The translations under genes and the position numbers were made by a program. Under the pieces are notes generated by a model, which ran no database searches, was not told the origin of the DNA, and saw nothing but the letters and a program-made list of their open reading frames with translations. Shown piece by piece: positions 1,288-59,219 of a stretch of 64,000 bases of DNA (position 1 is its first letter; each line of letters opens with the position of its first letter). The stretch is from Thermoproteota archaeon (GTDB taxonomy: Archaea > Thermoproteota > Nitrososphaeria_A > Caldarchaeales > Calditenuaceae). The stretch is from positions 231,164 through 295,163 of the forward strand of contig JAUQPU010000002.1 in assembly GCA_030550235.1 (NCBI GenBank), written 5' to 3'.

Positions 1288-2436
1288 ATGCCAGTATCTC
1301 GGATAGACATACCGAACATAAGGCTCGGAGAGGAATTCAGCTGCAGCTGCGGTAAGAGACACCGGGTAGCGACCCGGCAGCTATTCTTCGGCGACTCGCT
1401 GGAGACGCTCCTTACCTCCCTCGACGATATAACATCTAAAGGTGGTCACGCTGTGATAGTTACCGGGCCAAGGACGCGACTCATAGCTGGCGAGACTGTC
1501 AAGGGATACTTTGCCTCGAGGGGGTTTCGTACACTTGTCATTGAGGTTGAGAGGGCTGACCTAGCCACTGTCGCGGAGGTTGAGAAGCTTGCCTCGGGCT
1601 GCTCCCTAACAGTGGCTGTGGGTGGTGGGAATGTGATAGACTCTTGCAAATACGCGGCGCACACGCTAGGTGTGCCATTCATCTCAATACCTACAACGAT
1701 ATCCCACGATGGCATAGCCTCACCTGTCGCCTCGATCCTCCTCGGCTCGAGAAGGACAAGCATAATGGCCACGCCTCCTGTAAAGGTTGTTATCGCCGAG
1801 CCACTCATCAGAAGCTCACCAAAGAGGCTAATCGCATCAGGTTGTGCGGACATACTCGCAAAGTCCACAGCCTTAAGAGACTGGCTACTAGGCCACATCA
1901 TAAAGGATGAGTACCTCTGCGAAAATACCTTAAACCTCACGGCCTCGGCCTTAAAAGATGTTAGAAGTTTTATCGACGGTGGAGGGAGAGATTTCCTACC
2001 TCTCGCTTCCGCCGCTGCGAAGTGTGGTGTAGCCATGGCGCTTGTCGGCTCCTCGAGGCCTTGCTCAGGGGCTGAACACCTCTTCTCGCACTACCTCGAT
2101 ATGGTCGGTGAAGGCTTAGGGCTTCACGGCGAGCAGGTGGGGCTCGGAGCTATACTCATGGCCGCCAGGTATGAGGACTCTGACGCACCCCCAGTGAAGG
2201 GGTTTGAGCTCTCAAGCCTAGATTTAAAAAACTATCTCTCAAGGGCAGGCGCGCCAACCAGCATAAGGGAGATTAACATCTCAACAGAGACGGCCGTAAG
2301 GGCGCTTCTAGAGTGTAAGAACCTCAGACCGGAGAGATACACCATACTACACCACGCACCGCTTACACAAACAGCCGCGCTCAAGCTCCTCAAGCAGACG
2401 GATATGCTCACCGAGACCCAGCAGCCCAAAGAATAG
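1288..2436 (+). CDS. egsA: glycerol-1-phosphate dehydrogenase [NAD(P)+] for the archaeal lipid backbone; the true start is possibly downstream
   Basis: Glycerol-dehydrogenase/DHQ-synthase-like fold motifs VAVGGGNVIDSCKYAA and IPTTISHDGIASP. Adjacent to NAD kinase, as is common in archaea. Confidence 0.7.
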   Translation: MPVSRIDIPNIRLGEEFSCSCGKRHRVATRQLFFGDSLETLLTSLDDITSKGGHAVIVTGPRTRLIAGETVKGYFASRGFRTLVIEVERADLATVAEVEKLASGCSLTVAVGGGNVIDSCKYAAHTLGVPFISIPTTISHDGIASPVASILLGSRRTSIMATPPVKVVIAEPLIRSSPKRLIASGCADILAKSTALRDWLLGHIIKDEYLCENTLNLTASALKDVRSFIDGGGRDFLPLASAAAKCGVAMALVGSSRPCSGAEHLFSHYLDMVGEGLGLHGEQVGLGAILMAARYEDSDAPPVKGFELSSLDLKNYLSRAGAPTSIREINISTETAVRALLECKNLRPERYTILHHAPLTQTAALKLLKQTDMLTETQQPKE

Positions 2437-2481
2437 TTCAACCCCCTTGCAGCGGCGGGCTGCGATGTCTTTATCACCTAG

Positions 2482-3297
2482 TTGGATGGTAGCGTGGATG
2501 GATTGTATGTTATAGTGGTGTATAGAAGAGATAAGCAGGGGGCTGACAGGGGGGCTTTAGAAGTTGGAGAACTCCTCCGGACCTACGGATGCGAGTATGA
2601 CCTCTACATGATGGATGAAAAAGGGATAAAGGAGCCTCTTGGATGCGACTACCTAATAGTCCTTGGCGGAGATGGCACCATACTGGCCTCCATCCACGCA
2701 CTTGAGGAGCCTGAGACACCAGTTCTCGCCATCTCATATGGAAGGGGTGGATATCTCGCAGATGCCTCACCCCAGGAGGCTAGGCGCGCCGTATCCGCGC
2801 TGCTTAACGGGAACTTCAGGCTTGACAGGCTCATGAGGCTCGATATAACTATAGACGGAGAGCTAATATCCGACGTAGTCAACGAGGCCTACATCTCAAA
2901 CTCCCTGGTAGGAAAGGTCGTAGAATTCGACCTAGAGGTCGAGAGGCTAAAGCTACAGAGCATAGTGGCCGACGGCATGGTCTTCTCAACACCGGTCGGC
3001 TCAACAGGATACAACACATCCCTAGGCGGCCCACTAGTCGACGAAGAGCTCGAACTAATCATAGCCACACCAGTCGCCCCCATAACAAGCCTCCGACCAA
3101 TGGTCTTCTCGGCACTAAGGCGTATAGTCATGAAAGGGGTTAGGGGGCCATTCTGCGCAGTTATCGACGGCTTAATAAGGCATGAATTTGAGAAGGGCGA
3201 GATCGTAGTCACAAAGTCACGCCACAGCACCGTCCTAGTAAGGACCTCGGAGGTATCACTCTGTGAGAGAAGAATCAAGAAGAGACTCGGAATCTAG
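2482..3297 (+). CDS. nadK: NAD+ kinase
   Basis: GGDGT motif (LIVLGGDGTIL) and the downstream DG...TPVGSTGYNTSLGGP NAD-kinase signature. Confidence 0.85.
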   Translation: MDGSVDGLYVIVVYRRDKQGADRGALEVGELLRTYGCEYDLYMMDEKGIKEPLGCDYLIVLGGDGTILASIHALEEPETPVLAISYGRGGYLADASPQEARRAVSALLNGNFRLDRLMRLDITIDGELISDVVNEAYISNSLVGKVVEFDLEVERLKLQSIVADGMVFSTPVGSTGYNTSLGGPLVDEELELIIATPVAPITSLRPMVFSALRRIVMKGVRGPFCAVIDGLIRHEFEKGEIVVTKSRHSTVLVRTSEVSLCERRIKKRLGI

Positions 3298-3676
3298 AGC
3301 CTACGTACTAGATACAAACGCGCTCCTCCTAGGATTCAGTGGAGTCAAAAACCTCTACACAACAGAAGCGGCCATTAAAGAGGTCAAATACGACGAACTC
3401 CAAGTAGCAAGGCTTGAGGCAATGCTAACATCCGGCGCATTAAAAATCGCTAGGCCAACAACAGAGGCCATAGAAAAAGTAAAAGAATCCGCAGGAAAAC
3501 AACTCGACAAGCTCTCCCAAACAGACCTAACAATACTAGCAGCAGCACTCGACCTCACAAAAACCCATAAAAAAGTCATAATCGTAACCGACGACTACAC
3601 CATACAACAACTCACAACAAAACTCCAACTAAACTTCATACCACTAAAACACAGTGGCATAAGAAAAACAAGATAA
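3263..3676 (+). CDS. PIN-domain protein (predicted ribonuclease)
   Basis: N-terminal YVLDTNALL acidic PIN motif and later VIIVTDDYTIQQ. Overlaps the nadK end by 35 nt. Confidence 0.55.
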   Translation: MREESRRDSESRAYVLDTNALLLGFSGVKNLYTTEAAIKEVKYDELQVARLEAMLTSGALKIARPTTEAIEKVKESAGKQLDKLSQTDLTILAAALDLTKTHKKVIIVTDDYTIQQLTTKLQLNFIPLKHSGIRKTR

Positions 3677-4636: not shown

Positions 4637-4846
4637 TGTAATCTATACACTCATTATTTCTAACCTAGTTTTGCTTAAAAACTTTAAGGTAGATGCGAAG
4701 CGAACAACCATAATCACGTCTATTTAACTCGAGAATTATGTTTTATGAAATCATAAATGTGCTCGTGTAGAGGTGGTCGAGGGTTAGGTTTTATCCTTTT
4801 TTAGGATTCTCGTGCCTGAGGTGTAGCATATGTTTATAATCTATAA

Positions 4847-5884
4847 ATGAGGTGGTCTGTGTGGCTGGTTATGTCTTATTCTGTGGATGAGTTTAGGTGT
4901 AGTGTTTGTGGGGCTCCGATTGATGTCTCTCCTTACTCGGTTGTGGTTGTTTGTGGTTATTGTGGGTGGAGCTCCTCTGTTGAGAGTGCTGGTTTGAAGC
5001 CTTTGGTCGTCCCGCCGGAGGATAGGGGCTTTCTCAGAGCATGGCTGGAGAAGATTGTCAGGTCAAAGGCTGGGAAAATAGCGACCGTTAGAGATGTCAG
5101 GTTTTTGATGGTGCCGGTCTGGGTCGTTTATGTAAACGCATCCACGCGATATAATGGGTATCGAACTGAAACTAGGTCGCGAAGAGTTGGGACAGGGAAA
5201 TATGCCAGAATCCAGACGTACGACGTCTACGTCCCTGTTAAAGGTGTCATCGACGAGAAGCTTGCCATCGCTGTTTATGGGCGAAGGTTCGAGTCGACAT
5301 TTGGGATTGGGACGGTGAAGTCGAGTGTCCTTGACAGGGTGCGGTCTGCTGTGGAGCTTGAGCCTTCCTTAACGAAGGGGTGGGATGTTCTTGGCTCAGA
5401 ATTCTCACAGGAAGAGGTGTTAGAAGCAGCCAAGACACGCGTAGCTGATGAGCATCGTAGAAGGCTTGAGTCGATGACGACCAAGCTCTATGACTGCTAC
5501 ACCACTGCGGATGTAGCTGGGGCACGTCTCATCCTCTACCCAGTCTTAGAGGCTCGATACGAGTCTGGTGGAAAATCATATCGGATGATTATTGATGGGG
5601 TTAAGGGCTCTACGAGGGTTTTGAAGGCGGAGCTTCCCATTACTACCTCCGCGAGAATTATTAGAGGATTAGCTGCCGCCGCTGTGGTTTTTGCTGCAGC
5701 CTTGCTTGCGTCGTTGCTCCAGCCTCTAATAGGTACGGAGATCCCTGAGGAGCTACAGCTTGCGATGACTGTCGCTCCACCGGCGATAGCGGGGTTTGCA
5801 GGGTTCTTGGGCTCAATGATGGCTACAGCTGTGCAGAGAATATCTAAAACAGTTGAAGAAATAGATATACGGGTCTTGGGGTGA
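4847..5884 (+). CDS. zinc-ribbon protein with C-terminal transmembrane region (paralog A); the true start is possibly ATG at 4871
   Basis: CSVCGAP...CGYCGW zinc ribbon near the N-terminus. A conserved block MVPVWVVYVNA is shared with the next gene. C-terminal hydrophobic segment AAAAVVFAAALLASLL...AIAGFAGFLG. A TATA-like TTTATAA sits about 35 nt upstream of 4871. Confidence 0.6.
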   Translation: MRWSVWLVMSYSVDEFRCSVCGAPIDVSPYSVVVVCGYCGWSSSVESAGLKPLVVPPEDRGFLRAWLEKIVRSKAGKIATVRDVRFLMVPVWVVYVNASTRYNGYRTETRSRRVGTGKYARIQTYDVYVPVKGVIDEKLAIAVYGRRFESTFGIGTVKSSVLDRVRSAVELEPSLTKGWDVLGSEFSQEEVLEAAKTRVADEHRRRLESMTTKLYDCYTTADVAGARLILYPVLEARYESGGKSYRMIIDGVKGSTRVLKAELPITTSARIIRGLAAAAVVFAAALLASLLQPLIGTEIPEELQLAMTVAPPAIAGFAGFLGSMMATAVQRISKTVEEIDIRVLG

Positions 5885-6894
5885 AGAAGATGTCTATCCA
5901 CATATATCAGTGCCCGAACTGCGGGGCCCCGTACAAAGTCAGAGAGGGGGACGTGGCGATAAAATGCAGTTACTGCAATACCGTCTTCAGAACATTCGAG
6001 GATGAAAAACGATTCATCATTCCAGTCTACTATGACAGTAGTCGGGCCATTGAAAACTTTCTTCTCTGGGTGAAAAAACAGACGGGCTATGAGGAGTCAC
6101 TTCCATTCAACATAAATCTTCTCGAGGTCAAACTGCATTTTTACCCATTCTGGGTTGTATCGCTTAATGCGAGGACAACCTTCACAGGAGTGGGGGAATA
6201 CGCGGAATTCAGTAACCCCGACTCAGGAGGCTATAGGAATATCAGAGTCATGACAAGAGAAGAATCTGGTAGTTTTGAGAGATTCTTCGAGCTTGTGCTA
6301 CCTGCTTCAAAAGATATCCCGTCAGAAGGTGAAGTCGTCGGCGTTTCAAGGATGAGAAAATTCTTCAGCCATGAATATGTCGAGCAGCAAGGTGGAGTTT
6401 TACACGGAGCCACAATTACGAGAGAGGATGCAAAAAGCATGGCCGAGCAGATAGCCGCAGCTGAGCTATCGAGACTTATCATGAGAGAAGTAGTGACAGT
6501 GAATACTCGAAACGATCAAATCCAGATCAAAGAGATCGCGCTCGTTTATATTCCGTTATGGCATGTGTCCTACGAGTTTAGGGGAGAGAAATATCGGGCA
6601 TTTATTGATGCCTCGTCGAGCAGGATTATCTACGCGTCTTATCCACCTGATATCGCTGAGAAGACGGCTTACTTGGGTGTTGCGGCTCTTCATGTAGTAC
6701 TAGGAGTTGTTTCAGCCTTTTTATTTTGGGGTTTTGGGTGGCTGCCAGTGGTCACCGTGTTCATCGGTTTTATTACAGCCGCTGTTGTTTATGCTTGGCG
6801 TGGTCTCTCTCCGACAAGGGCTAGAGAAATGGTTGATGAGAGAGACTTACTGAGGAAACAGGTCGAGACAGCAGCCAAGAAATGGTTGAGATAG
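5881..6894 (+). CDS. zinc-ribbon protein with C-terminal transmembrane region (paralog B)
   Basis: CPNCGAP...CSYCNT ribbon, a YPFWVVSLNA block, and the C-terminal TM AALHVVLGVVSAFLFWGFGWLPVVTVFIGFITAAVVY. Same architecture as the upstream gene. Confidence 0.6.
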   Translation: MKKMSIHIYQCPNCGAPYKVREGDVAIKCSYCNTVFRTFEDEKRFIIPVYYDSSRAIENFLLWVKKQTGYEESLPFNINLLEVKLHFYPFWVVSLNARTTFTGVGEYAEFSNPDSGGYRNIRVMTREESGSFERFFELVLPASKDIPSEGEVVGVSRMRKFFSHEYVEQQGGVLHGATITREDAKSMAEQIAAAELSRLIMREVVTVNTRNDQIQIKEIALVYIPLWHVSYEFRGEKYRAFIDASSSRIIYASYPPDIAEKTAYLGVAALHVVLGVVSAFLFWGFGWLPVVTVFIGFITAAVVYAWRGLSPTRAREMVDERDLLRKQVETAAKKWLR

Positions 6895-6937
6895 ACGGAG
6901 GTTTGAAGGAAACTATTATATTAGGGGATTCACAACG

Positions 6938-7483
6938 TTGGGCAAGATGAGCATAGAACGCGTCCGTAAAGAAATGGGACTCATGGAGAAAATCATGAGC
7001 TACATACCTGGATATAGGGGGTATAAGGAGAAGGAAATTAGAAGGGAGACAGACATTCTTGTGAGAAGAAAAATTAGCGGCATTCTCGCAGAGGCCCGGT
7101 CAATGCTAAACTCACCTCTGGGCCCGTCGGAGGCTAGAAAACTTGCCTATGATCAAGAGTCTAGGTTCGCTCTTGAAAATATTAGAACATCCCTCGACAA
7201 GGTGTCACAGCGGATAGATAAGGCCGTGGCTGGATATGCTGGGTTGTTTGACGCTGTCAAGATCCGGGAAGACAAGCTCGACGCCGTAATTAGTCATGAC
7301 CTTTCTCTGATTGAGAAGGCCGAGTCGATTAAGGCAATAGTTTCAGATCTTTTTTCGAAAAACATTGGGACTCCTGAGTGGAAAAACACGCTTACGGGCT
7401 TGATTTCAGCGGTTAGGGAGTTAGATCAGTTGATTGATGAGAGAATCGAGTTGCTGGAGGGTCTGAGCGAGGTGTCTGGCTGA
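6938..7483 (+). CDS. predicted all-helical coiled-coil protein, unknown function
   Basis: Helix-favouring composition throughout, with no TM segment. Its stop overlaps the ATG of the next gene (ATGA), suggesting translational coupling. Confidence 0.55.
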   Translation: MGKMSIERVRKEMGLMEKIMSYIPGYRGYKEKEIRRETDILVRRKISGILAEARSMLNSPLGPSEARKLAYDQESRFALENIRTSLDKVSQRIDKAVAGYAGLFDAVKIREDKLDAVISHDLSLIEKAESIKAIVSDLFSKNIGTPEWKNTLTGLISAVRELDQLIDERIELLEGLSEVSG

Positions 7484-8448
7484 TGCCTAAGGTCATTCAA
7501 TGGGTCGGGGCTAGAGAGGGAGACATAGTCTGGCGGTATCCTATAGACGAAATTGAGTGGGGGAGCAACTTAATTGTTGAGGAGTCACAGGCTGCTGTAT
7601 TTTTCCGAGATGGAAAAGCTTACGACGTGTTCAGGGCTGGTAGACATGTGATAACGACCGCAAATCTTCCACTTATCACAAAAGTTCTCTCAAGGATTGC
7701 GGGCTTTGACCGCGTACCCTTTAAGGCAATGGTTGTCTTTGTCTCTCTGAAACAGTTTCAAGGAAAGTTTGGGACACAGGGCCAGACAAGCGAGTTGGCT
7801 CCCCTTAAATTCTTTGGCAGCTTCTGGTTCAGAGTTGCTGAGCCCAACCTCTTCGTCCAAGAAGTGGTAGGCTCGCAGGGAACATATAGTACTGAGCAAA
7901 TGCAAGATTTCCTCAGGGCATATTTTAACGAGGCGCTAATCGACGAGTTGAGCCGGCACAGCATCGTCGAGGTTTACGGCAAACTCGATGAGACAAGCTT
8001 CCTTGCCAGAAATGTTGTCGGTCAGGCTTTCGTCAGGATTGGTCTGGAGTTGATTGATGTGAAGTTTGAAGGCCTTGACACCACGCCCGAGTGGAGGGAT
8101 AGAATCTTCTACCTGAGGCAGGGTGTTTCAGCAGCGGAGGTTCTTCGTATGCAGACAGTCGCTAAAACTGCTGAAGCTCTTTCCCAAAGCCAGGGCGCCG
8201 CTGTCGGAGCTGGTATCGCAGTCATACCTCCGCTTTTCCAGCAGCCTGTACAGCAGCCTCCCACTGTCGTGATCCTATGCCCCAGCTGTGGTTTCCAGAA
8301 CCCCCAGGGTGCAAAGTTCTGCAGTAACTGTGGAAAGCCCCTCGGCCCGCCACCCACGCCACAGCAACCAGCCAACAAGTGTCCAAACGGCCACGATGTT
8401 CCTCCAGGCTCTAAATTCTGCCCCGAATGCGGAGCCAAGCTATCATGA
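7483..8448 (+). CDS. SPFH/Band-7-like (Band_7_1-type) domain protein with C-terminal double zinc ribbon
   Basis: The N-terminal 230 aa resemble the PF13421 pattern (VIQWVG..DIVWRYP..SNLIVEESQAAVFFRDGK..AGRHVITTANLP..KFGTQGQ). Then a Q/P-rich linker and two ribbons, CPSCGFQNPQGAKFCSNCG and CPNGHDVPPGSKFCPECG. Confidence 0.65.
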   Translation: MPKVIQWVGAREGDIVWRYPIDEIEWGSNLIVEESQAAVFFRDGKAYDVFRAGRHVITTANLPLITKVLSRIAGFDRVPFKAMVVFVSLKQFQGKFGTQGQTSELAPLKFFGSFWFRVAEPNLFVQEVVGSQGTYSTEQMQDFLRAYFNEALIDELSRHSIVEVYGKLDETSFLARNVVGQAFVRIGLELIDVKFEGLDTTPEWRDRIFYLRQGVSAAEVLRMQTVAKTAEALSQSQGAAVGAGIAVIPPLFQQPVQQPPTVVILCPSCGFQNPQGAKFCSNCGKPLGPPPTPQQPANKCPNGHDVPPGSKFCPECGAKLS

Positions 8449-8762
8449 TCAGCTACGGGTCAGGAGCCCTAATCACCATAACATGCTCTCTAGGGATACT
8501 CCTTGTCCTAGGCGGAGCAGGGATAGTTCCAATCAACCTGCAGACAATAGCAGGCGTAGTGCTATCTATTTTCGGCATATACTCCATAGTATACAGCGTG
8601 TTTTCGAAAGATCTTTTCTACCACACACTTTGGGGTGGTGTATCAATAGCTATAGGAGCTGCATTACTTACCTCACCGGTAGTCAACCCAACCATAATGG
8701 TGGGAATAGCCCTCATTTTCATATCAATAGTAGGAGCTATAGCAGCACTTAAAAAAAGATAA
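8427..8762 (+). CDS. small membrane protein (3 predicted TM helices), last gene of the operon
   Basis: Hydrophobic 111-aa ORF overlapping the upstream gene's end by 22 nt. Confidence 0.5.
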   Translation: MRSQAIMISYGSGALITITCSLGILLVLGGAGIVPINLQTIAGVVLSIFGIYSIVYSVFSKDLFYHTLWGGVSIAIGAALLTSPVVNPTIMVGIALIFISIVGAIAALKKR

Positions 8763-8834: not shown

Positions 8835-9366
8835 TCAAGTTATATCCAGCCGAGTCGTCGGAAGACCCAGAGCATTAGGATGGCTGTCCTCTATTGCCTC
8901 AAGCTCTTGCATAAGATTGTCCAGCATAGGGAACAAATCGTCCACCAACCTGTCCAATATTGTGTAAAGGATATAGGCCGGGCCTCTGCCCATAATGTCC
9001 TGTCGCCGGGCCGCATTGTCTCTGCACGTTTGGAAAAGCGCTGATAGGGGTTTTACATCTGACTGATTTACTGTGACGAGATAGTTTTTGCCGAGGAAGA
9101 CTCCTATCTGAGCCAATGTTATCGTGCTTCTATGGCTGTCGGTTTGGGGGAAAGTGTAGGATAGCGAATATGTGGTTAGGGTATACGTCGATTTTCGGGA
9201 GCTGGACTTTTGAGATGCAATCTTCAAGATTTAACATGCTGAAGGGGAAATGACGGCCCAGCATGTCCATCTCTCTCTGACTGGGCTTATTCACATTCAC
9301 CCAAACCACACCATCATGTCTCAGAAACTCTAAGCCGTCGAACTTCTCCACAACCCTAAACAGCAT
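8835..9366 (-). pseudogene. corA: frameshifted and 3'-truncated Mg2+ transporter CorA
   Basis: Two overlapping ORFs in different frames, 9130..9366 and 8835..9227, together match the CorA cytoplasmic domain (DGVVWVNVNKPSQREMDMLGRHF..LNLEDC..; ..KNYLVTVNQ..GPAYILYTILDRLVDDLFPMLDNL..LEAIED). The C-terminal TM helices and GMN motif are missing. Confidence 0.65.
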
Positions 9367-9447: not shown

Positions 9448-10107
9448 CTATTTGGCAGAGAGCTGGGCTGAGACCTCAATTCTATTCGAGTTTCTATGGA
9501 TGGTTATTTCGAGCATCCCCAATAGCCTACCCTCAACTGTGCTCGGTCCCCCGACGCTTATATTAGCTTCATCAGCAGTGACGGAGACAAATGTAACTTC
9601 TTCGCGTAGCCCCCTGTTTTTCAGCTCCTCCTTGATCCTGTTCGAAACCATAGAGTGGTCCTCTATTGGTGATGAGGATGTATATTCCGCTGTTATGATT
9701 AAAACGTCTTCAAATATTGTCTCCGTGTATTGGGTGAGCGTTATTTTACTCCCAGTAGCAGATGAAAGGACTGAAGCCATGAAGCTGTTAAATTTTTTAC
9801 CAAACTCTGATGGTGGAGTTACTTCAGTAGTTCCACCAGTCTCTGTCCTACCTGTCATCATAGTGAATTCATGGGTTGTACTGAACGTCGTCAAGCCTGT
9901 CCTCGGAATGTAGGTGGAAAACAAGCCAATAATCAGGGCAGCCACAACCAGCAAGCCTATAACCAATAAGACCAAGGCCATCTTCATAATACACTGTTTG
10001 TCGAGATTTGGCAACCATATAAACATTTTTACCAAAGAAACCTCATGCGGCGCTTGAGGCAATATCGCCTCTATTTTTCTTATTTTCAAGAGAAAGACTA
10101 TGCACAA
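9448..10107 (-). CDS. membrane-anchored or secreted protein with Thr-rich linker, unknown function; the probable start is the internal MKMALVLL
   Basis: N-terminal hydrophobic anchor (ALVLLVIGLLVVAALIIGLF), then a T-rich segment (TTFSTTHEFTMMTGRTETGGTTEVTPP), then a globular domain. Confidence 0.45.
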   Translation of the reverse strand: MCIVFLLKIRKIEAILPQAPHEVSLVKMFIWLPNLDKQCIMKMALVLLVIGLLVVAALIIGLFSTYIPRTGLTTFSTTHEFTMMTGRTETGGTTEVTPPSEFGKKFNSFMASVLSSATGSKITLTQYTETIFEDVLIITAEYTSSSPIEDHSMVSNRIKEELKNRGLREEVTFVSVTADEANISVGGPSTVEGRLLGMLEITIHRNSNRIEVSAQLSAK

Positions 10108-10144
10108 TTTTTAAATATTTCTCTAGTCGAAGTATCTGAACAAA

Positions 10145-11287
10145 ATGATGTCCGATAAAATTAGATTGGCCTTGGTTGTAATAGTTATTTTGGTTATAGT
10201 AGTCGGAGTTTTTTCCGACGTTGCTGATGCAGCCCATACCCCTGCTTGGAGAAGAACTCGAACTAGAACTAGGACCACAACCTCGGCTCCAACATCGACA
10301 ATCCAAACAACAACTACAACATCTTCTAACACAGGATACTCTGATACGTTTCCAGCCGTTAATCCGGCAATTCTTGGAACATGTCCGCCTGAGGTCCATG
10401 ATAGATACTATGTCATCGGCCCTGATGGTAGAAAATACAGGACATGGCATCCTGTAACCGTGCCTATAGACCCGAATAACCCTGCAAAAGGCACATGCAC
10501 GTTTGCTCATGAACACGGTGATAATCCGCAGCAGGGAAGCTTCACAGACCTTCCCGCATTTGGATACGCAGCGAAGGTCGCTGGAATGGTTGAGGAGATA
10601 GCAGCCCACGCAGGCTTCAAGGTCTTCTACAAGCCAAAGAGGGGCGATGGACTAGGCAACAACGCTGAGTGGAGAATAGTAGTCCATCAGGGCACTGCTG
10701 GTGCGCGACGGCTAGTTCAAAGCCTCCACAGCATCCAAATCAATATAGTCGATGGGGCTGGGAGAGTAACTAAGGTTAACCTAATGGCTTCAACAGGTAA
10801 CCTCAACCCGAAATGCGGACCCCGCGTGGGCGACAGAATAATCCCCGACGAAGAATGCGTCTCCCGGGGGCTGTTCTACGAGGTCTGGTATTTCTCGGTG
10901 CGTGTAGGTGCTGGCAACATCAACGGAGCCAGGTTCTTCGCAGCGCCGGGAATCGCCGTCTACAACCCCATGACATACATGAAAGTAGGCGACCTCTCCA
11001 AAGTTTATCCAATATGCAGCGTGGTTGAGGGCCTGCCTTTCGGGGACCCGAGAAGTTTTTTCCTCGGCAACCAGAGAGCAGTTGAGCATCCAGACTTCGG
11101 CTGGGGCAACACAGGCTCCTCAACCTTCTGGACAGACGCATATGGCAATGAAGTCTCCACAAGCTGCGACCCCACCCGATGCATCAGACAGGTGGTTCCA
11201 TCAGGATACTATGCCTGGTTCGACGATGACTCGGTCTTCGACTGGCCTTGGATAGACCTGCCACTGGGCGCACCAGGGGGCAACTAA
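10145..11287 (+). CDS. secreted or anchored Cys-containing protein with Thr-rich linker, unknown function
   Basis: Signal/anchor LALVVIVILVIVVGVF, a TRTRTRTTTSAPTSTIQTTTTTSS linker (likely glycosylated), and a ~300-aa domain with several Cys and an HEHGD motif. Confidence 0.55.
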   Translation: MMSDKIRLALVVIVILVIVVGVFSDVADAAHTPAWRRTRTRTRTTTSAPTSTIQTTTTTSSNTGYSDTFPAVNPAILGTCPPEVHDRYYVIGPDGRKYRTWHPVTVPIDPNNPAKGTCTFAHEHGDNPQQGSFTDLPAFGYAAKVAGMVEEIAAHAGFKVFYKPKRGDGLGNNAEWRIVVHQGTAGARRLVQSLHSIQINIVDGAGRVTKVNLMASTGNLNPKCGPRVGDRIIPDEECVSRGLFYEVWYFSVRVGAGNINGARFFAAPGIAVYNPMTYMKVGDLSKVYPICSVVEGLPFGDPRSFFLGNQRAVEHPDFGWGNTGSSTFWTDAYGNEVSTSCDPTRCIRQVVPSGYYAWFDDDSVFDWPWIDLPLGAPGGN

Positions 11288-59108: not shown

Positions 59109-59219
59109 TGCGGGGGGTGGGATTTGAACCCACGAACCCCTACGGGACAGGGGCTCCCATCTCATTATATTTTGGAGATCCTGAGCCCTGCGCCTTTGAC
59201 CAGGCTTGGCGACCCCCGC
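59109..59219 (-). tRNA. tRNA-Leu(CAG) with an intron in the anticodon loop region; CCA is not encoded
   Basis: The reverse complement gives the acceptor stem GCGGGGG/CCCCCGC with discriminator A, a D-arm GCCAAGCCTGGTCAAAGGC, an anticodon stem CAGGG/CCCTG with loop CTCAGGA (anticodon CAG), a ~26-nt insertion (TCTCCAAAATATAATGAGATGGGAGC), a long variable arm CCCGTAGGGG, and a T-arm GTGGGTTCAAATCCCAC. Confidence 0.85.

Follow-up and report, generated by a model that had tools for sequence, protein, structure and literature searches.

In Bacillus subtilis, YdjG, YdjH, and YdjI (SamG, SamH, and SamI), whose genes share an operon with pspA, make up a membrane-associated SPFH complex. YdjI is soluble, and YdjG and YdjH are required for the foci that it forms at the membrane; YdjI also binds PspA and localises it (PMC8581546). 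YdjG, as described by Ravi et al. (PMC11237479), is built from zinc ribbons, a YpeB-like alpha/beta domain, and a transmembrane segment. SamGHI also has roles that are independent of PspA; loss of SamI is reported to lead to constitutive stress signalling via SamG-SamH, a phenotype for which PspA is dispensable (bioRxiv 10.64898/2026.02.06.704340). Work on SamI and SamG has so far been limited to B. subtilis, where they have been treated mainly as accessories of PspA, and in the literature that we searched we found no description of an archaeal YdjG/YdjI (Band_7_1/PF13421) cassette, the nearest mention being a contextual link between SPFH and ESCRT genes in Methanobacteriota (PMC10936438). Here we analyse a stretch of 64,000 nucleotides (the window) from a Thermoproteota archaeon of the order Caldarchaeales (contig JAUQPU010000002.1, positions 231,164 to 295,163), in which an earlier reading of the sequence (the original prediction) had pointed to an operon of this kind and had been aware of no such module in Archaea. 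The operon is real and conserved. It is the known YdjG/YdjI module, new in lacking PspA and YdjH and in having two unassigned partner families, those of gene 3 and gene 5, and we favour with some confidence the view that it encodes an archaeal, PspA-less version of the SamGHI complex. The homology and the synteny on which this view is built are direct results of the comparisons described below; from them we infer the interactions, the topology, and the physiological role.

The operon consists of five co-directional genes (window positions 4871-8762, + strand), and not of six as originally counted; the list of open reading frames likewise gives five. Its features, with the translation starts that we favour, are as follows.

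4833-4839, + strand: TATA-box-like heptamer TTTATAA, read from the sequence; candidate archaeal promoter element upstream of gene 1
4871-5884, + strand: gene 1, YdjG/SamG family, 337 amino acids from ATG 4871 (345 from ATG 4847)
5881-6894, + strand: gene 2, second YdjG/SamG paralog, 337 amino acids
6947-7483, + strand: gene 3, helical-bundle protein, predicted soluble, 178 amino acids from ATG 6947 (181 from TTG 6938)
7483-8448, + strand: gene 4, YdjI/SamI-type soluble SPFH protein, 321 amino acids
8445-8762, + strand: gene 5, small polytopic membrane protein, 105 amino acids from ATG 8445 (111 from ATG 8427)

The reference locus for comparison was recovered from the published ydjGHI primers, which gave a degenerate pattern covering codons 1-10 of ydjG and, with it, three metagenome contigs, two of which were read. 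One (L088) holds the whole pspA-ydjG-ydjH-ydjI locus, the other (L086) lacks only the start of pspA, and the termini of YdjG and YdjI in both agree with the published primers.

Gene 4 is, as judged by alignment over its whole length, a homolog of YdjI. The B. subtilis-type YdjI and the archaeal protein align from end to end, the terminal ribbons included (BLASTP E = 6e-16, 22% identity over 338 columns). A Pfam search assigned residues 16-199 to PF13421 (Band_7_1) with an E value of 1.2e-28 (100.7 bits against a cutoff of 24), in keeping with the SPFH domain proposed for this part of the protein, and gave further matches to PF01145 (8.7e-16) and DZR (3e-10). The PF13421 domain is followed by a Q/P-rich linker and by two zinc ribbons (residues 266-284 and 302-318), also as proposed, except that the second ribbon reads CPNGH...CPEC and not CxxC...CxxC. 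A Kyte-Doolittle scan revealed no hydrophobic or transmembrane segment, and a sequence search of the PDB with gene 4 returned nothing significant. More than 5,500 homologs of gene 4 were found, the best 120 of which are 61-87% identical to it over the full length; they come from Caldarchaeum, Bathyarchaeia, Nezhaarchaeota, and other metagenome-assembled genomes (MAGs) of Nitrososphaerota/Thermoproteota, and identity across the classes of Thermoproteota is 60-87%. Cross-class conservation at this level is unusually strong, and it would imply that gene 4 has an important part to play in membrane biology among Bathyarchaeia, Caldarchaeales, and related lineages. Three ribbons are present in 102 of the 120 closest cluster representatives, as compared with two in gene 4 of the window (8260-8448); one ribbon seems to have been lost in this lineage.

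Genes 1 and 2 are paralogs (BLASTP E = 5e-9, 23% identity over 286 amino acids) that share, as originally described, an N-terminal Cys4 ribbon (CxxC...CxxC), a conserved P-x-W-V-V block, and C-terminal transmembrane helices. In gene 1 the ribbon is followed by an alpha/beta domain and a C-terminal transmembrane anchor. The AlphaFold2 model of gene 2 (predicted local distance difference test score, pLDDT, 82) shows the N-terminal ribbon, two units each consisting of a helix plus a long beta sheet, two predicted transmembrane helices (about residues 258-281 and 287-309), and a C-terminal helix; the predicted architecture is the one described for YdjG by Ravi et al. (PMC11237479). The kinship with YdjG showed in several comparisons: an alignment of 42 sequences of the gene 1/2 family matched YdjG with an hhalign probability of 99.8% (E = 2.3e-28, 292 columns), the hidden Markov model of the family found YdjG by hmmsearch at 4.6e-38, gene 2 alone matched it by BLASTP at 6e-10 over 302 amino acids, and a tblastn search of the window with YdjG hit gene 1 at 4889-5608 (E = 1e-4). 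On these profile and pairwise scores genes 1 and 2 are YdjG homologs and go beyond look-alikes; together with the full-length match of gene 4 to YdjI, this upholds the proposal that the operon is an archaeal variant of the YdjI/YdjG arrangement. A word-indexed search with genes 1 and 2 retrieved 42 close relatives, nearly all from Caldarchaeales, and an exhaustive profile search retrieved a YdjG-like family of 8,976 clusters at 50% identity, with E below 1e-10 for 4,574; many of these proteins have a second ribbon, as YdjG does.

The likeness to pspA-ydjGHI thus extends to a PF13421 SPFH protein that is soluble and ends in zinc ribbons behind a low-complexity linker (gene 4 and YdjI), to a protein that combines zinc ribbon, alpha/beta domain, and C-terminal transmembrane anchor (genes 1 and 2 and YdjG), and to the presence in the same operon of genes for a soluble helical protein and a further membrane protein. 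The two loci differ in gene order and in host, here a Thermoproteota archaeon. They differ also in that the archaeal YdjG homolog is duplicated and has one ribbon and two transmembrane helices, whereas YdjG has two ribbons and one helix; in that the TPM-domain protein YdjH is absent and a polytopic protein of 105 amino acids, gene 5, stands in its place; and in that PspA is absent and the helical protein found instead, gene 3, has no detectable relation to PspA or ESCRT-III. A tblastn search of the 64-kb window with PspA found nothing, and no PspA_IM30 gene was present in the related loci that we examined.

To what extent is the arrangement conserved? We scanned one genome per species and obtained 187 genomes with a relative of gene 3, the best 80 loci of which were fetched; the open reading frames of these and of five earlier loci (85 in all) were searched with genes 1-5. 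Synteny was counted in the 78 non-redundant archaeal loci with at least 1.1 kb of sequence downstream of gene 3. In all 78, genes 3 and 4 share a strand, with gene 4 downstream. The two are within 150 nucleotides of each other in 60 loci, often overlapping or no more than 2 nucleotides apart; one extra YdjG-like gene stands between them in 17, and a gap of 1.25 kb in the remaining one. The original prediction would have fallen if gene 4 had proved not to be SPFH or if homologs of these genes were never co-located in other genomes, and neither was the case.

Of the main gene orders, gene 5-gene 3-gene 4 was seen in 24 loci, the same order preceded by a YdjG-like gene in 14, mostly from Bathyarchaeia and with the YdjG-like protein in a soluble form of 250 amino acids, and the order of the window (two YdjG-like genes, then genes 3, 4, and 5) in 10, from Caldarchaeales. 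Most loci have gene 5, and about half have YdjG-like genes. The loci belong mainly to Caldarchaeales and Bathyarchaeia, with the gene 3-gene 4 pair also found in a Nezhaarchaeota genome and in a MAG labelled Norongarragalinales. The full five-gene order recurs in archaeon HR01 and in another MAG with entirely different flanks.

Two further proteins were observed in this survey. The YdjG-like protein inserted between genes 3 and 4 (at 6543-7796 of locus L006, at 2137-3381 of locus L023, and in 15 other loci) is a soluble form of about 415 amino acids with no transmembrane segment and with an extra N-terminal domain of about 110 amino acids and a P/Q-rich linker ahead of the ribbon. In about a dozen genomes of Bathyarchaeia and Nezhaarchaeota, a protein of about 200 amino acids, in which an Arrestin_N domain (E = 2e-10) is combined with a zinc ribbon at the C terminus, is encoded next to genes 3 and 4, usually on the opposite strand (L001 8587-9183; also L002, L036, L041, L043, L044, L066, L067, L072, L078, and L082); it is absent from the window.

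Gene 3 is the constant partner of the SPFH gene. Its AlphaFold2 model (pLDDT 84.8) consists of two short N-terminal helices followed by a compact bundle of four (residues 32-57, 63-98, 111-138, and 146-178), so that the protein is indeed all-helical, as had been stated, albeit probably of 178 and not 181 amino acids. Conservation within the family is highest in two loops that carry the invariant motifs PGYRGYKEKE and AVAGYAGxFD and in the helices that flank them. Pfam domains were absent from the best 120 of its 565 homologs, no Pfam family recurred across 46 members of the family, and a PDB sequence search with the gene 3 profile gave nothing significant. All 46 aligned members did match the NCBIfam model NF047596 (LIMLP_15305_fam), which represents a family from Leptospira, over positions 6-172 of 175, with a best E value of 3.6e-16, and the gene 3 family therefore has distant bacterial relatives. 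Gene 3 of the window matched the model over its full length with 38.8 bits (E = 8.4e-10), far below the curated cutoff of 210 bits, and by this score it is a distant homolog of the LIMLP_15305 family and not a member of it. In the literature searched, LIMLP_15305 appears only as an entry in a table of small RNAs, without product names. We found no relatives of gene 3 in viral contigs or plasmids; the gene 3 profile showed no relation to the hypothetical proteins encoded beside PF13421 genes on Bacteroides and Butyrivibrio plasmids, and an hmmsearch with it over all bacterial loci fetched found nothing. PspAA and PspAB were considered as identities for gene 3 and ruled out, PspAA being an alpha/beta domain.

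How might these proteins act together? By analogy with the anchoring of YdjI by YdjG and YdjH, we propose that the two YdjG-like proteins, probably along with gene 5, would reside in the membrane with their ribbons and alpha/beta domains in the cytoplasm and, perhaps with help from gene 5, would bring the soluble SPFH protein to the cytoplasmic side of that membrane. Gene 3 would be made in step with gene 4 and bind to it as a partner in fixed stoichiometry. Its translational coupling to gene 4, and its occurrence with gene 4 in every one of the 78 loci, make gene 3 most likely a stoichiometric partner of the SPFH protein. One possibility is that the scaffold concentrates it at the membrane as a client or effector; another is that it is a helical subunit and provides the coiled-coil part missing from PF13421 proteins. 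The role of the complex would be a housekeeping one, in surveillance of membrane integrity, stress response, or microdomain organisation, rather than in mobile defence.

Several observations weigh against this view. Gene 5 is not a homolog of YdjH, which leaves the archaeal set without a counterpart of one of the three B. subtilis partners. The fold matches of gene 3 are generic four-helix bundles, and structure searches of the PDB with the alpha/beta domain of gene 2 gave no informative solved relative. Finally, some bacterial PF13421 genes lie on plasmids or in defence-like surroundings, and the family is therefore not uniformly a housekeeping one.

The position of gene 3 raises the question of whether it is a functional analogue of PspA, that is, a membrane-binding or repair effector of a kind other than ESCRT-III that the SPFH scaffold would concentrate at sites of membrane damage. 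The original prediction had placed an unassigned helical protein in the position of PspA. Gene 3 does occupy the place of the soluble helical partner, directly upstream of and inseparable from the SPFH gene, and in B. subtilis it is PspA that YdjI binds and localises (PMC8581546). The lack of a PspA homolog in the window would fit such a substitution, as would the conserved and moderately amphipathic helical segment at the N terminus of gene 3, ahead of an invariant loop. Beyond operon position, however, no equivalence to PspA emerged from profile, fold, or Pfam tests. The gene 3 family and the B. subtilis-type PspA gave an hhalign probability of 0.09%, none of the 46 members matched PspA_IM30 or Snf7 in Pfam at E values up to 1, and the model lacks the long alpha1-alpha2 hairpin of the ESCRT-III fold. 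Also, the hydrophobic moment of the N-terminal segment is modest (at most 0.42), and the peak of conservation in two Gly/Tyr-rich loops would suit a binding site better than it would a polymerising coiled coil. We therefore regard a PspA-like function for gene 3 as unlikely. Equally doubtful, though worth stating, is the bolder proposal that gene 3 founds a class of SPFH-recruited membrane effectors, compact four-helix bundles unrelated to ESCRT-III and PspA that would protect or remodel the membrane in Thermoproteota. Were it true, the pair of SPFH and YdjG proteins would be an ancient and general recruitment platform whose cargo has been exchanged, PspA in bacteria for gene 3 in archaea.

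The membrane protein encoded by gene 5 has about four hydrophobic segments, not the three originally ascribed to it. It has no Pfam TPM domain and its BLASTP match to YdjH has an E value of 4.9, which gives no support to the idea that it is the equivalent of YdjH. Its homologs belong to the same cassette, where they follow gene 4 in Caldarchaeales and precede gene 3 in Bathyarchaeia. An identity as NfeD was also considered and rejected: the match to NfeD_membrane was only 11 bits (E = 0.41) against a cutoff of 26 and was absent from three homologs. The operons that pair SPFH genes with NfeD genes (stomatin/YbbK-YbbJ, FloA/YqfA-YqeZ, and FloT/YuaG-YuaF) do resemble the archaeal locus in that an SPFH gene lies beside a gene for a small membrane protein with which it is thought to act at the membrane. 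They differ from it in that their SPFH proteins are of the PF01145 type, with a membrane anchor of their own and long coiled coils, and in that gene 5 lacks the OB-fold domain of NfeD, for which, at 105 amino acids, it is too short. A second point of comparison is the 'Meth_adaptin' ESCRT loci (Makarova et al. 2024, PMC10936438; SPFH, coiled-coil, and zinc-ribbon proteins), which share with the cassette an archaeal SPFH protein with zinc ribbons and a contextual link between SPFH and membrane remodelling. Those loci contain genes for Vps4, ESCRT-III, adaptin-appendage, and GOLD-domain proteins, none of which is present in the cassette or in the flanks that we examined.

The pairing of SPFH and YdjG proteins is not confined to archaea and B. 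subtilis. A plasmid of Vibrio coralliilyticus (NZ_CP048695.1; L094 4962-7115) carries a PF13421 SPFH gene and, immediately after it, a YdjG-like gene (hmmsearch 1.6e-47); no pspA accompanies this pair. Its occurrence there and in archaea means that the dyad exists in both domains, is widespread, and is not tied to PspA. The archaeal cassette shows that the pair is conserved deep into Archaea without PspA, which fits the PspA-independent roles of SamGHI and suggests that the dyad is the ancestral core of the module. It also gives a named context to the gene 3 family, which is present in at least 187 species-level genomes, and to the gene 5 family, which is present in most of the related loci examined, and it offers, in the pair of genes 3 and 4, a concrete target for structures and biochemistry that address the working of soluble SPFH proteins. 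Three distant YdjG-like proteins (P0279-P0281) had no SPFH neighbour in any case; a distant YdjG-like gene in a bacterial contig (L089 6001-7113) stands beside the chaperone genes dnaK and clpB, which are on the opposite strand, with no SPFH gene nearby.

The PspA-independent phenotype of B. subtilis bears on a further explanation, according to which the archaeal module would be a sensor of membrane stress whose output is mainly signalling or regulatory, rather than a structural scaffold, with gene 3 as an adaptor that is released or bound on stress. A role of this kind has been proposed for SamGHI in B. subtilis, where constitutive SamG-SamH signalling upon loss of SamI, with PspA dispensable, is reported (bioRxiv 10.64898/2026.02.06.704340); the many zinc ribbons of genes 1, 2, and 4 could serve in interactions, and the invariant loops of gene 3 suggest a site for a specific ligand or partner. 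Yet the cassette has no conserved transcription factor, kinase, or other recognisable output domain, and the explanation overlaps to a large extent with the PspA-less SamGHI complex that we favour, from which sequence does not separate it. We consider a primarily signalling module to be a distinctly improbable alternative.

The remaining alternative is an antiviral or abortive-infection system, in which gene 3 would be a membrane-disrupting four-helix bundle held in check by the SPFH scaffold. The fold of gene 3 does resemble the executioner bundles of MLKL, CC-NLR, and HeLo-like proteins, with faint Pfam hints of Rx_N and SNaCT11 (E values of 0.11-0.14), and certain bacterial dyads of PF13421 and YdjG proteins have TIR-domain genes as neighbours or share a small plasmid with restriction and toxin-antitoxin genes. 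The Vibrio pair of locus L094 adjoins genes for a TIR-domain protein and for a protein with a 'TRAFs-binding domain', neighbours that may point to a use of the dyad in defence in some bacteria, and a defence role somewhere in the wider PF13421 family is possible on such gene context. For the archaeal operon the evidence points the other way. The Rx_N and SNaCT11 hints did not recur among family members. PADLOC gave nothing significant: only the zinc ribbon of gene 2 (residues 10-41) matched, to PDC-S64 with 17 bits, and the other four proteins had no match. The cassette is single-copy in 83 of the 85 related loci, the other two having a tandem gene 5, and it is found throughout whole classes, where gene 4 keeps 60-87% identity, a pattern contrary to the patchy and fast-evolving one of defence genes. 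Its flanks encode an arginase-family enzyme, an Fe-ADH_2 protein, NAD kinase, a radical-SAM enzyme, a class-V aminotransferase, and thiamine genes, which by annotation are housekeeping or core-metabolic genes and not a defence island. An antiviral function is accordingly very improbable.

Nor do we see grounds for recent acquisition, which had been suggested from a lower-GC, pseudogene-containing stretch. The GC content of the operon is 0.488 as compared with 0.507 +/- 0.029 for 4-kb windows, at the 34th percentile, and low GC content as a sign of acquisition is thereby ruled out; low GC is confined to the upstream membrane-protein gene and the intergenic region. Hence the ordinary GC content, the housekeeping flanks, the lack of matches in the defence library and in viral contigs, and the identity of gene 4 to its homologs together argue against either a recent acquisition or a defence role, as does the conservation of the cassette across order and phylum. 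The pseudogene is real, as described below; it lies outside the operon.

The translation starts given above depart in places from those first read, which were 4847-5884, 5881-6894, 6938-7483, 7483-8448, and 8427-8762 (all + strand). The heptamer TTTATAA is 32 nucleotides from ATG 4871 and 8 nucleotides from ATG 4847, and we favour ATG 4871 as the start of gene 1 because the heptamer is too near ATG 4847 to serve that codon. Gene 1 orthologs start about six residues ahead of the first cysteine, nearly all gene 3 homologs are 178 amino acids long, and three sister assemblies from this organism have gene calls of 337, 337, 178, 321, and 105 amino acids; from these the likely starts of genes 1, 3, and 5 are 4871, 6947, and 8445. 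Two of the overlaps noted originally stand, the GTGA shared by the stop of gene 1 and the start of gene 2 (5881-5884) and the ATGA shared by genes 3 and 4 (7480-7483), and the 22-nucleotide overlap at 8427 becomes, from ATG 8445, a second ATGA overlap of 4 nucleotides between genes 4 and 5. The sole sizeable gap within the operon, between genes 2 and 3 (6895-6946), is AT-rich and contains TATTATATTA. The conserved unit of Bathyarchaeia starts at gene 5-gene 3-gene 4, and it is conceivable that this gap holds an internal promoter for genes 3, 4, and 5. A scan for sigma-70 promoters and intrinsic terminators returned counts equal to the shuffled expectation, with models that are not applicable to an archaeon.

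Just downstream of gene 5, on the - strand at 8835-9366, open reading frame fragments of 78 and 130 amino acids match positions 2-140 of the 292 of CorA, with the membrane part missing. As judged by these matches, the region is a frameshifted and truncated CorA pseudogene; it is unlikely to be an assembly error, because the 78-amino-acid fragment is called at the same position in two sister assemblies. Beyond it (9448-11287) are two open reading frames without a Pfam match, one of 219 amino acids on the - strand and one of 380 amino acids on the + strand with a Thr-rich N-terminal segment; the latter is called identically in the sister assemblies. At 59109-59219 on the - strand, where ARAGORN calls no tRNA in the window, an Rfam search gave a tRNA match of 43.9 bits that spans 111 nucleotides for a model of 71 positions, and this is probably an intron-containing archaeal tRNA.

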